Shown in pieces: positions 18,715 to 28,388 of a stretch of DNA of 29,349 bases. The position numbers and the translations under genes were made by a program. The DNA comes from a virus (Duplodnaviria; Caudoviricetes), in IMG/VR virus record IMGVR_UViG_3300024325_000045, positions 1 to 29,349 of that record; one strand, written 5' to 3'. Within the stretch, counting starts at the first letter, position 1, and the number at the start of each line of letters is the position of its first letter. Under the pieces are notes generated by a model. It was not told the DNA's origin and made no database searches. It saw only the letters and a program-made list of their open reading frames with translations.

Positions 18715-19122
18715 TTAGTCTCTCGATACCGAATTGGTCAGTCTCACTAGCGCGTTCGTGGTTGTCACGCCAGCAGTGATCGTTGCCGTGCCGACATAAT
18801 TTCCGAATGGAGCGTTCCCGCGGGTCTTGTCGATCGTCAGTGCGGTTGTGACGTTCGTTGTAGCATCCAGCGATCCCGAGGCGAAGAGTTCATCTCCCGG
18901 CCGAAGGGTTAGACCAGATACGGGTGATTGCGTGCTCTGTGCGATCACAGTGAGAGAGGCCACGCCAACCAGAACAAACTGGCAGCCTCCAAGGGTCGCA
19001 TTGTAGTTATCGACCGCGACGGCCGGCATGGTGCCGATCAACACCGGCATTCCCTTAGTCACCGAACTGGGACAAGGGAAAAATATGCTATTGTCGTCGG
19101 GAAAGATCGGGTAATTAAGCAT
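18715..19122 (-). CDS. Capsid decoration/cement protein (DUF2190-like)
   Basis: MLNY...VTKGMPVLIGTMPAVA...GV...GD...FG...VRL pattern. Between scaffold and capsid. Confidence 0.75.
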   Translation of the reverse strand: MLNYPIFPDDNSIFFPCPSSVTKGMPVLIGTMPAVAVDNYNATLGGCQFVLVGVASLTVIAQSTQSPVSGLTLRPGDELFASGSLDATTNVTTALTIDKTRGNAPFGNYVGTATITAGVTTTNALVRLTNSVSRD

Positions 19123-20626
19123 TCGGAGCCTCCCCGTACCCAGCGGCGATCGCCTTCACGGCAGTCTCAGGCAGCCCGAATCCGGCAAACACGCTCAGCG
19201 CCCGCCTGTGAGCCATTGCGCTGGCTTCGCGAAGCTTCGTCTCCGCTTCCGGGTTCGGCGCCGCACCGCCTGAACCCATGCCGATTACCCGGCCCGCGCC
19301 TGTGAGGCTCGCCACGTAGGCGCCTTCGCGTTTTGCTTCCGCGTTCACTGCTTCCGCGAATTTCACTTTGTCGAGAGCGCCTTCGAGCATCGGAATTTCC
19401 CGCGAGAGCACCAAGTCAACGACTCGTGCTTTGCTGGCTTCCTGCAGCGTGATGTCTTTGAGGATGCGTGAAGCCTCCTCTCTGGCATCGCCGCGGATTG
19501 CCCGTTCAAGCAGTGGAGCCTGAGCGGACTTCACCGCCGATTCGATTAATTTCTGTACAGCAGTTTCGTCCATCTCGGACTCCTGTTTTGGATTGGCGGA
19601 AACGGCCGCCTCCGTCAAAATCATTCCGCCCGCGCCAGCTCGGGTTACCACATCGATACTTTCGCAGCCGGTAAACTCCTTCAGAATCGGGACGCCGTCT
19701 TTCAGGACTGGCCGATTCGCTTCCATTACGGCGTTTCCGTTGGCCCGGATCGACATGCCCGAGTAGGGAGCCTTTTCTAACACCCCCGGAGCGATATCGC
19801 CGGCGAATTTGGCCTTCGCATAAAGACCGTCGCCGTGTTTCACGCTTTCCTTCCAGTAGGCGTCCGAGGAAAGTGCACCGGCGAGCTTATGCCAGTCGCC
19901 CGCTGGCCGCTCTGCCGATTCGCGTGCAGTGGCGTGATTGATATAGATTTGTGTGTTCTTTTTGAAGACGTTAGGCCCGTCCCGCTTCAACACTTCAGCG
20001 GGATAAAAAGCAGTCGATCCCCTGCCCGGAGCGATAATCTTGATTTCTACCTCGCGGCCGGCCGACTCAATAAGTTGAAGTTCTTCCCCCCACGAAGTTG
20101 ATTCTAGGAGTTGTAAGGTAGAATGTTTTTGTGGTGTTTCACGCTCAACGCTGGCGCGGGCCTGTTCTCGGCTGTCCAATTGCCGAAAAGCATCGGATTC
20201 GCGATTGCCGTTCGTGTCGTGCCGCCCTGATGCGTCACGCTCGCGCCGCTGGCCAGTGGAACCCTCCGTATGATGAGAAAATAAAAGCCCGAGCAATTCT
20301 TGGCGTGTATTTGCGTCGAGGGAAGATTCAAAAAGGGCCTTGCAGCTTGTGCGGATCGCCGAAGTCTCAGGCACATCACCGAGACTATTCAAAGCCTCTT
20401 GAAGTGACTTGGCTTTGCAAAAGGCATCACGAGCAGATTCACCACCTCGACCCGCTTCAGCCATTGAGCAGTTAGCCCCGAGGGACGTTGCGTGATCGTG
20501 GATCGCCTGCAAGACGCTGAGATCTCGCTTTGAATTGCGCGCCCCAGCTTCACTCGTCTCGACCTTGCCGTCCGCCATTTCCTGCATACGCAAGGCGAGC
20601 GCTACAAATTCGGCACGTAAGAGCAT
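19115..20626 (-). CDS. Prohead protease / scaffold fusion
   Basis: IIAPGRG, FYPAEVL, YINH, GMSI, SIDVVTRAGAGG protease motifs, then a helical scaffold tail. Confidence 0.85.
   Translation of the reverse strand: MLLRAEFVALALRMQEMADGKVETSEAGARNSKRDLSVLQAIHDHATSLGANCSMAEAGRGGESARDAFCKAKSLQEALNSLGDVPETSAIRTSCKALFESSLDANTRQELLGLLFSHHTEGSTGQRRERDASGRHDTNGNRESDAFRQLDSREQARASVERETPQKHSTLQLLESTSWGEELQLIESAGREVEIKIIAPGRGSTAFYPAEVLKRDGPNVFKKNTQIYINHATARESAERPAGDWHKLAGALSSDAYWKESVKHGDGLYAKAKFAGDIAPGVLEKAPYSGMSIRANGNAVMEANRPVLKDGVPILKEFTGCESIDVVTRAGAGGMILTEAAVSANPKQESEMDETAVQKLIESAVKSAQAPLLERAIRGDAREEASRILKDITLQEASKARVVDLVLSREIPMLEGALDKVKFAEAVNAEAKREGAYVASLTGAGRVIGMGSGGAAPNPEAETKLREASAMAHRRALSVFAGFGLPETAVKAIAAGYGEAPNA
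20131..20475 (+). CDS. HNH-like endonuclease nested antisense inside the protease/scaffold gene
   Basis: CRSC...ARAILGVYLRRGKIQKGPCSLCGSPKSQAHHRDYSKPLEVTWLCKRHHEQIH is a recognisable phage HNH-like signature. TAGAAT lies 6 nt before the GTG. Confidence 0.85.
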   Translation: MVFHAQRWRGPVLGCPIAEKHRIRDCRSCRAALMRHARAAGQWNPPYDEKIKARAILGVYLRRGKIQKGPCSLCGSPKSQAHHRDYSKPLEVTWLCKRHHEQIHHLDPLQPLSS

Positions 20627-20697: not shown

Positions 20698-20973
20698 ATG
20701 CCTGAAACCGAACTTTGCTCGAAGTGTAAGGAGAATCCCCGCGCCGACTCCGATTCAAACAATCCCTGGTGCAAGCCCTGTCGAGCCAAATATGCGAAAG
20801 AATATGCCGATGAGAAGTTGACCCGCGAACGGTCAAAGGGTTTTGTGGCCGGCGTCGAGGCGATGGTGCAAACGCTCGCTACTGAGTTCGGCCGCCATGG
20901 TCGTGCTCAGATGACTTGCCGGGAAGTGGAATTTGCAATCCGGAATTCACCGCGTCCTCAGATGCCGACCTGA
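20698..20973 (+). CDS. Small Zn-finger protein (CxxC...CxxC)
   Basis: CSKC and CKPC. TAAGAT 6 nt before the ATG. Divergent from the protease gene. Confidence 0.7.
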   Translation: MPETELCSKCKENPRADSDSNNPWCKPCRAKYAKEYADEKLTRERSKGFVAGVEAMVQTLATEFGRHGRAQMTCREVEFAIRNSPRPQMPT

Positions 20974-21750: not shown

Positions 21751-22091
21751 TTGGGGACACCCAGGAAGCAAACCAACTTCCCCTCAACCCAGACTTCCCA
21801 TTGATGCGCCACCCCTTGATAGCGATGGCGCCGCACATCCTCAACGAATGCCTGAAGGAATCTTTGAGTCGGTTTCGATGTAGTCAACTGATCGACGCAC
21901 CTCCTGATTTCTGCGGGACTCGTCGGGTTTTCGTAGGAAATCACAAATCCGGTCCATGATTCACTGTTCCACGTGACGCCATCTCGCGGAATGTACTTGC
22001 CCGCTGTGGTGCAGTCCACATCCTGGGAATTGACCGTTGAAAACTGGGCTAGCATCGACCCGGCGACCAGCAGAATGCCTAGGATTTTCAT
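21747..22091 (-). CDS. Secreted hypothetical protein
   Basis: MKILGILLVAGSMLA-Q signal peptide. ATGA coupling on both sides. Confidence 0.7.
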   Translation of the reverse strand: MKILGILLVAGSMLAQFSTVNSQDVDCTTAGKYIPRDGVTWNSESWTGFVISYENPTSPAEIRRCVDQLTTSKPTQRFLQAFVEDVRRHRYQGVAHQWEVWVEGKLVCFLGVPK

Positions 22092-27003: not shown

Positions 27004-27906
27004 CTACACCACCCCGAACAGATCGAGCCCCGCCGCCAACCCCGGATGCTCGAGAACTAATCGTTTACACTCCGCTTCCTGATAGGGCTCGGCATCCACG
27101 TCTAGATATTGCATCAGGTGTGCGTACGGAGCCCACCACGAGGCCGGAACCTGATCATATATCCAAGTATCCGGCGTCCCGAACGAGCGATTCCCCGCGT
27201 CTCCGTGGATTGCCCACGAGTACATCCTGTCCATCTCTGCAACGGGCTTATCCGGCCACCGCAGCCGCTCATTCAGCTTGTACAGCGCGTGCTTGGCTTT
27301 CAGCCGCCTCTCGCTGACACCCCAGAGGTGCATCACGCCGCCGTCGCCTTGAGCGATCGGCCTGTAGGGTTGTAACGTCATACCGCGCGGTTCACGATGG
27401 TGGAAGTTGTCGCCGCCCCAGTACAGCCGCTCGTCGTCGCAAAAAGCCGTCGAAAACCAGCGATTTCCCCATATACCATTGGCGTGGTAGCGATTCAGGG
27501 AGCCACGCAGGTTGTATCCCGGCAGTTGAACAATGACTCCTGGAGATGCTTCGTATAATGCAATCGGAGGCCAATCGCCCTTTACCCACGGATGCGGCCC
27601 TAAAGCAGTAAGGTTTCCCGTCAAGATCTCGTCGGCGTCGATAATGGCGATGTGGGTTGCTTTATGATACCGAGCGATTTTTAGCATCCCCTGCCTGTGA
27701 GTCATTTCCTCCCATTCCCCGCTGGCGGTCGCATCATGGATTCTATCTGGGTACTCTCGTCGCAATAGATCAATGATTTGCGGGGTTCTATCTGTGCTCG
27801 CATGATCGAGGATCACCAGTTCGTCCACCCAAAGAAGTGCAGCTCTTGCAGACAATCCCAGTACCCAGGATTCATTTCTACAGCACATCAAGCCCACGAG
27901 TTTCAC
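27004..27906 (-). CDS. Glycosyltransferase family 2
   Basis: [24 protein letters not shown] (DxD), HLW. GTG start overlaps the HNH stop (GTGA). Confidence 0.9.
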
Positions 27907-28388
27907 CGCGACTTCCTCCGATTATTGGCTTGCTCTTTAGCGGTCGCCCACCGACAGTTTCCCGGCTCGTAGTTCCCATCGTTGTTGATGCGGTCGATGC
28001 TCAGACCAGGAGGTATTTCCCCCATGTCCTTCAAAAACATTCGGAAATCCCTCCATCGTTCACACACCGTAATACCCCGAGCTCCGTAATATTTGTATTC
28101 TTTAACGCGCGGGTTGAAACAGCGCGACTGCATTCCGTTCCAGATTCGATAAGTTCTCGATGAAGCCTTACCGTGATACGGTTTGCCTCCGGTGAGGAAC
28201 TGCTGACGCTTGCACCCACAACTAGTGGTGCGGACATTTCGTAGGTTTCTTTGTGAACGCTTGCAGGTCTTTCCGCAATCACATCTACATTCCCAAACGA
28301 ATGAACGGTCCAGGCGCTCGTTGGTTCTCCGAACAGCAACCAGCATCCCGAAACGTCTACCTGTTATATCAACTGGAACTGTTGGCAT
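27903..28388 (-). CDS. HNH homing endonuclease
   Basis: [71 protein letters not shown] 7 nt before the ATG. Confidence 0.93.

Follow-up and report, generated by a model that had tools for sequence, protein, structure and literature searches.

The prohead protease gene and its linker

The window, i.e. the whole stretch of 29,349 nucleotides analysed here, is a contig from a soil phage in which the portal, protease, capsid and tape-measure genes all lie on the minus strand. The related locus L061 hints at an Acidobacteriota host. The prohead (capsid maturation) protease gene (19115..20626, minus strand) encodes 503 residues. Residues 187-404 match head maturation proteases (phrog_15531, E 7e-23), residues 9-56 also match (E 8e-6), and tblastn aligned the ORF with annotated capsid maturation proteases of actinophages. 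H231, S292 and D325 are invariant in 32 protease homologues. Family match, location before the capsid gene and conserved His/Ser/Asp residues together identify the predicted product as a prohead protease of the herpes/T4/HK97 clan. A fold search with the whole protease gave no match at E 0.001, the weak Foldseek matches to herpesvirus proteases having E-values of 0.5 or worse. The protein can be divided into an N-terminal module (residues 1-56; 20459..20626), an insert (residues 62-172; 20111..20443) predicted to be helical over residues 65-122 and disordered over 120-179, the protease domain (about residues 187-340; 19607..20068), delimited by family match, invariant residues and tblastn, and a C-terminal region that appears to be helical and scaffold-like.

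The N-terminal module is kept in frame in insert-free relatives. P0005, P0008 and P0009 have N-termini that share 80-86% identity with it, and in P0008 it is joined to the protease by a short linker. Measured from the last N-terminal module to the L-x-L-x-E-S motif, the linker is 117 aa long in the window versus a median of 16 in relatives (90 short cases of 111 scorable proteins among the best 120 of 502 homologues; 9 of the 120 were unscorable and left out, and P0091 was mis-measured). The first-pass annotation had proposed an insertion of about 115-130 aa at this place; alignment with homologues confirmed the insertion but reduced its net size to about 100 aa. The N-terminal region of the protease family is modular and ranges from 58 to over 300 aa. 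The window protease is itself a mosaic, with an N-terminus nearest to P0008/P0009 and a domain nearest to P0002/P0003/P0011. In P0007, P0143, L007 and many others, the N-terminus consists of exchangeable GD-rich, GKGKSFPI and EAGARNS modules without Pfam match, separated by L-x-E-A motifs. The linkers of L036, L043, L044, L082, L087 and P0011 contain a DnaJ-like CxxCxGxG pair on the sense strand.

Two [LIVMF]-x-E-[AS] motifs, LLES (residues 173-176) and LIES (185-188), lie just before the protease domain (20063..20110, minus strand) and are predicted self-cleavage sites. All 32 homologues compared have E175 and E187. Within 30 residues before the domain, all 115 scorable proteins have at least one [LIVMF]-x-E-[ASG] motif and 108 have two, and the N-terminal part of the capsid protein contains four such Glu motifs. 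Repeated x-x-E motifs in the N-terminal protease and capsid parts, as well as the conserved His-Ser-Asp residues, are also described for the Glu-specific prohead proteases T4 gp21, phiKZ gp175 and SPN3US gp245 in the available part of PMC5694885; cleavage was measured in those systems and is predicted for the window protease, and SPN3US gp245 is cut at its C-terminus, not at its N-terminus.

Cleavage-like motifs had also been noticed in the insert, and LQEA (host residues 75-78) and LFES (98-101) are indeed present. LQEA opposite KPLEV occurs in three of four carriers versus 2 of 55 free-standing homologues, and no carrier is without a motif of this kind in its insert. Shared ancestry can explain LQEA in carriers, and the idea that it is a required feature was dropped, as P0143 lacks it. 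Removal of the insert as a propeptide by the protease is plausible from the Glu motifs before the domain, the Glu specificity of related proteases and the predicted disorder of residues 120-179. The linker tolerates unrelated inserts anyway.

The antisense HNH-family gene and its overlap with the protease

An ORF of 114 codons with a GTG start (20131..20475, plus strand) lies wholly inside the protease ORF, as the first-pass annotation had claimed. It matches the endonuclease family phrog_2340 in PHROGs (E 5e-17) and, more distantly, the HNH family phrog_8048 (E 0.0075), whereas Pfam returned no match for either the nested or the host ORF. The annotated start at 20098 is not part of the gene: it corresponds to a TTGATT hexamer. 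The HNH-family core (20341..20442) comprises C71, C74, H82, H83, C96, H99, H100 and H104. The Asn position of the HNH motif is occupied by Glu, as in most of the phrog_2340 family. The His/Cys core motif and the family match place the protein, at the sequence level, among the HNH (beta-beta-alpha-metal) proteins. Its N-terminus is zinc-finger-like and contains a GPxxGC-x5-H-x4-CxxC motif (20158..20217), a predicted zinc site common to P0121 and to the HNH-less minigenes described below. The predicted structure is confident over the HNH core. The best VIA-align structure matches are HNH nucleases and are weak (4h9d, Z 4.9, rmsd 4.7 over 68 aligned residues; then 5h0o, the GVE2 phage HNH, Z 4.0). 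The top Foldseek rows are also HNH proteins, yet with E-values of 0.4 or worse, and a PDB sequence search gave nothing below E 0.09.

Free-standing members of the phrog_2340 family (HHxDYSKPLEVxWLC; 439 phage records match) share the HNH core and helix with the window protein but carry an N-terminal CxxC...CxxC finger instead of GPxxGC...H...CxxC. P0121, a 199-aa protein that is 61% identical, has both the same GPLPGC finger and the HNH core. It may represent a free-standing source of the nested gene, since its upstream frame is unlike an antisense protease. The same allele was found in the DNA contigs of X1 and X2; X4 provided a single contig of depth 2 with two listed changes, too thin for use. 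No RNA data set was listed as containing the sequence, a result that is uninformative about expression.

A -10 box (TAGAAT, 20119..20124, plus strand) lies 6 nt before the GTG codon, in agreement with the earlier claim that the gene has its own -10, and is predicted to form a leaderless promoter. A -35 box at 20098 was set aside, as its spacing to the -10 box is 15 nt and it is built of conserved host codons. The sigma-70 scan did not list this -35/-10 pair. The spacing and the scan therefore favour a -10-only, leaderless arrangement. A -10 box is also found 6-7 nt before a start in 20 of 79 free-standing phrog_2340 homologues.

In the overlap, codon position 1 of the HNH gene pairs with host position 1, and HNH position 2 lies opposite the host wobble base. 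This geometry forbids the junctions NTT-A, NCT-A and NTC-A, and the host frame is open across all 345 nt within a stop-free ORF of 503 aa; both points had been anticipated in the first-pass annotation. The stop codon of the nested gene, TAG, lies opposite the host G-A-N of LGANC, and the last codons and the stop are read from ancestral host codons. In the synonymous-shuffle test suggested by that annotation, run with the HNH protein fixed, 0.5-1.8% of 20,000 shuffles kept an open host frame. Among free-standing homologues, 6 of 63 scorable loci have no stop in this frame across the corresponding span (82 loci examined, not dereplicated, of which 19 were dropped as they had no regex-detected core), and by inspection none of these 63 viral homologues has a recognisable host protein in the opposite frame. 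Thus, the phrog_2340 family is fairly well suited to the overlap and, with about 10% of free-standing homologues open, the open host frame alone is modest evidence.

Two findings could have overturned the overlap: a protease start below 20100, or stops in homologous inserts. The host frame contains no ATG, GTG or TTG at residues 151-211, so that a protease start below 20100 would cost the first conserved strand. The three homologous inserts recovered are all open, in a protein search that is blind to interrupted copies.

Homologous inserts, HNH-less minigenes and palindromes in related loci

Homologous inserts were found in P0007 and P0013, with 46-48% identity in the host frame, and in P0143 (E 1e-5). 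A word-indexed search with the insert recovered only P0007 besides the window, while a profile search of 1.84 billion proteins gave P0013 and P0143; a fourth row of that search, P0144, is an unrelated repeat protein and was dropped. The three proteins are known as host-frame sequences, and the presence of HNH was assessed from the residues that could be encoded on the opposite strand. The key HNH residues are encodable at 15 of 15 positions for P0007 and at 14 of 15 for both P0013 and P0143, versus maxima of 9, 9 and 11 of 15, respectively, in 5000 shuffles. This encodability is partly due to host-frame likeness in P0007 and P0013, but not in P0143, for which only 17 of 49 host-frame residues are identical to the window. 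Changes in the antisense protein are forced at 7, 7 and 12 of 49 core positions (P0007, P0013 and P0143), and they miss all 14 key core positions, with chance probabilities of 0.08, 0.08 and 0.009. Position 99 is forced to Cys or Tyr in P0013 and P0143, Cys being the usual residue of the phrog_2340 family. All three inserts end in host residues compatible with the GTG start and the -10 box. These comparisons show that conservation of the insert lies in the antisense protein and not in the host-frame peptide. Opposite the HNH core, host-frame identity reaches 17 of 21 in three carriers versus 2-10 of 21 in 55 free-standing homologues; together with the predicted helices, this may reflect a constraint on the host side and not a passive linker. 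The contrast between core and N-terminal half was significant in one of six pairs.

Protease domains and their C-terminal flanks were placed in a tree of 58 rows (P0143 was not included), in which P0001 (the window protease), P0007 and P0013 occupy three separate starred parts; a single carrier clade is rejected (AU p 9e-6). By this tree the distribution of the insert over the host-gene phylogeny is disjunct for the three carriers. L007, a sister of P0007, is 89% identical and has no insert, with about 95 + 5 residues absent. Carriers of the HNH form are nevertheless rare: 3 of the best 120 of 502 protease homologues, HNH-less forms being commoner. A comparison of the host-frame insert alignment with viral contigs gave 70 pattern matches, none of which was confirmed, and the 141 protease loci with DNA included no further HNH-bearing one (L067 and L068 duplicate the window phage).

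These 141 loci, reduced to 98 by dereplication, were surveyed for HNH-less antisense genes. Such minigenes, ORFs of 49-73 aa with CxxC in the same frame as in the window and lying in long linkers of 45-60 aa, were found at L008, L017/L060/L078, L026, L029, L075 and L077/L120, i.e. in six lineages with DNA. The linker lengths of L052 and L103 are regex artefacts, and many distant loci have no scorable linker. Across the 98 loci, a -10 box followed after 6 nt by a start in the same frame occurs in 8 long-linker loci versus 0 of 90 others; the 8 include the window and the near-copies L077 and L120, leaving 7 lineages. Weak -10 matches in L042/L083 and L059 were rejected, as they lack CxxC and lie within the protease domain, beyond the interval that was scored. 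Compatibility with CxxC (19 of 20 long versus 19 of 90 short linkers) is confounded by length and was not used as proof.

Four minigene loci share the GPxxGC-x5-H-x4-CxxC motif with the N-terminus of the window protein. In each of the 10 pairs formed by the five members of this motif family, the antisense frame scores higher than the host frame and than the four remaining frames. L008 and L077 have a weaker, CxxC-only form and fail the frame-score test against the window. Third codon positions are the most diverged (19, 18 and 5 of 31 for the window against L029), in an alignment that was made in the antisense frame and is biased accordingly. Between L017 and L060 there are 5 differences in the antisense frame: three silent, one stop-to-stop and one replacement. 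The minigene stops are read from ancestral host codons, as expected of truncated cassettes. P0025 and P0026 are sisters separated by an in-frame gap of about 40 aa that spares the promoter-side codons, which suggests a deletion pair. About 12 further long linkers, known as proteins only, probably belong to the minigene family. Searched against PHROGs, the six minigenes gave no match better than E 0.13, and as a lone query the L017 minigene found only itself. Counting HNH-bearing and HNH-less forms together, sequence comparison places related antisense genes at the same linker in at least nine other phage lineages.

The first codons of the nested gene overlap a half-broken parS-type palindrome (20135..20150). 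The consensus, TGTTTCACGTGAAACA, is as given in the part of PMC10197239 available; with 4 mismatches to TGTTTCACGTGAAACA, the window copy fails a match within 2. Ten insert-free loci (L007, L009, L032, L061, L072, L076, L080, L081, L108 and L122) contain a 16-bp palindrome with at most 2 mismatches to this consensus, 61-76 nt before the protease domain. In carriers, the number of mismatches is 3-6, and those resembling the window have preserved the half with the start, A-TGTTTC. Carrier-specific sequence lies on both sides of the palindrome, the ORF body on one side and the -10 box on the other. In total, 22 palindromes were detected in the 98 loci (447 kb): 10 in the linker, 12 located 600-1200 nt upstream and none elsewhere in the flanks. 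They often lie within coding sequence read as VSRET. The palindrome may be a landing site, an operator or a remnant, and its recurrence could reflect the use of host ParB, or again an operator. Elsewhere in the window, weak palindromes with 3 mismatches each are present at 1600-1615 and 21965-21980 (0.35 expected by chance).

Origin and possible roles of the nested gene

We consider it somewhat probable that the protein-coding antisense HNH-family gene in the protease linker is mobile: a cassette that is not spliced out and through which the host ribosome translates. A cassette composed of a -10 box and a leaderless zinc-finger-HNH gene would have entered the linker in the sole orientation and frame that keeps the protease open. 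Its transcription would depend on the -10 box that it carries and yield a leaderless mRNA. The zinc finger would bind DNA and the HNH domain would nick insert-free alleles of co-infecting or resident phages, after which repair would copy the cassette, i.e. homing would take place. An addition of about 100 residues would be tolerated by the protease, since the linker is not part of the protease domain and is probably removed by cuts after Glu motifs as the head matures. In-frame deletion would then have eliminated the nuclease half in several lineages, leaving a zinc-finger minigene still under selection. The earlier proposal of a splicing-free insertion into an essential gene is supported, the insert having moved between protease backgrounds with selection on the antisense protein and not on the host frame.

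Several observations speak against homing. The window protease is mosaic, and phage mosaicism alone could scatter the insert. The rarity of carriers relative to HNH-less forms also counts against it, as does the insertion site. Homing inserts usually sit in conserved sequence, whereas this one occupies a variable linker. A more specific version is doubtful: the cassette would home on the parS-type palindrome of the linker and turn half of it into its own start codons, rendering carriers immune, and would later shed the nuclease to give the minigene. If true, the linker would record empty site, invasion, truncation, domestication and deletion without splicing, and the whole cycle would take place inside an essential capsid gene.

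Less likely than the mobile cassette, but a serious contender, is a domesticated regulator, in which the zinc-finger protein, whether or not it retains the HNH domain, and a convergent antisense transcript would damp the head genes with the palindrome as operator, the patchy spread resulting from ordinary phage recombination. Such a role fits the HNH-less minigenes, whose promoter, start and Cys motifs are retained across the 6 lineages with DNA and which show silent changes, and it fits the confinement of the palindromes to the linker (10) or to the region 600-1200 nt upstream (12) in the 98 loci. Up to 31 of 78 related loci moreover have a similar leaderless CxxC gene immediately upstream. 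In the window, this neighbour (20698..20973, or from 20686 at its widest; plus strand) is divergent from the protease gene, encodes CxxC...CxxC and has TAAGAT 6 nt before its ATG; it resembles the N-terminal finger of free-standing phrog_2340 proteins, all 16 listed differences in a related contig are at third codon positions, and it is itself likely to be a regulator. Yet 90 of 98 loci have no nested gene at all, four carriers retain the full HNH core, the palindromes are intact in empty alleles and broken in carriers, and the minigene stops are supplied by host sequence, as they would be in truncated genes. The mobile cassette and the regulator may also be stages of one history.

The remaining explanations fare worse. 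The HNH protein of HK97, gp74, is reportedly a packaging helper, and the nested gene could be a helper of the same kind stored inside the protease gene. Its position in the head module and the GVE2 phage HNH as second-best structure match (Z 4.0) agree with this, and HNH proteins that aid terminases are mentioned in the available part of PMC11855218. We regard it as quite unlikely, given that the gene is absent from close sisters and most relatives, that the window has a second HNH gene upstream of the portal gene (27903-28388) and that phrog_2340 is not annotated as terminase-associated. It is at least as improbable that the protease gene is split, with translation restarting in the insert (TTG at residue 150 or 111) and an upstream frame that is open incidentally. 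The insert does contain in-frame TTG and GTG codons, actinophage homologues match only from residue ~184 and, as mentioned above, the frame is open by chance in about a tenth of free-standing homologues; but these codons are preceded by no Shine-Dalgarno-like sequence, residues 1-56 show in-frame conservation, the host frame is open in the four HNH carriers and in every minigene carrier with DNA, and the synonymous-shuffle probability is 0.005-0.018. Removal of the insert by an unrecognised RNA or protein splicing system is hardly credible, even though group I introns and inteins often contain HNH genes (PMC11855218 and PMC2988022, from the parts available): there was no Rfam match at E 1 and no Pfam intein match, within the limits of these libraries, the ORF and its promoter fill nearly all of the insert, and the inserts, of 45 to 119 codons, without exception preserve the frame. 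Read-through without splicing is well supported.

The first-pass annotation knew of no described equivalent, but the principle has a published precedent on the same strand. The ShiLan domain is an out-of-frame HNH in an open mycobacteriophage DNA methylase gene (Arsenault, Gosselin, Gogarten 2025, PMC11855218). According to the portion of that paper available, it shares with the window an ORF with HNH and zinc finger in another frame, a stop-free host frame, the lack of intron or intein features, a disjunct distribution, a GTG start and a proposed leaderless initiation, HNH activity being predicted in both. With its out-of-frame HNH ORF, open host frame and disjunct spread, the predicted nested gene is a hidden insertion of the ShiLan type; it is not a ShiLan domain proper, which occupies the third methylase frame among conserved residues. 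ShiLan lies on the same strand among conserved residues of a non-essential methylase, whereas the gene described here is on the opposite strand, has its own -10 box, belongs to the phrog_2340 family and sits in a variable linker of an essential head protease; it also overlaps a parS-type palindrome, and derivatives without HNH occupy the same site in other lineages. The free-standing homing endonucleases of T4-like phages (mob/seg) are likewise intronless HNH genes of patchy presence, and they spread by nicking (intronless homing), as proposed for the nested gene. These genes lie between genes with overlaps of 1-24 nt, and full nesting is not described in the available part of PMC2988022. A literature search, with subscription journals outside its scope, found no paper on an antisense nested HNH gene.

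The locus adds an essential structural host, a series of empty, full and truncated alleles and a palindrome to a published principle. With it, the hidden HNH idea, so far tied to a dispensable methylase, also covers an essential virion-assembly gene and an antisense position. It also suggests a route of entry: a self-contained cassette of -10 box and start, an overlap frame that chance leaves open fairly often, and a linker that is not part of the folded domain. With empty, full and truncated alleles occurring naturally at a single site, the homing, decay and domestication of a nested gene can be tested directly. Standard annotation misses nested antisense genes of this kind. Separately, the recurring parS-type palindrome offers a lead on how the phages may use the host partition machinery.

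The second HNH gene of the window (27903-28388, minus strand) matches phrog_374 (E 1e-59) and has TATAAT 6 nt before its ATG. Between it and the portal gene, directly upstream of the latter, lies a gene resembling family 2 glycosyltransferases (27004-27906, minus strand; Pfam, E 1e-6).
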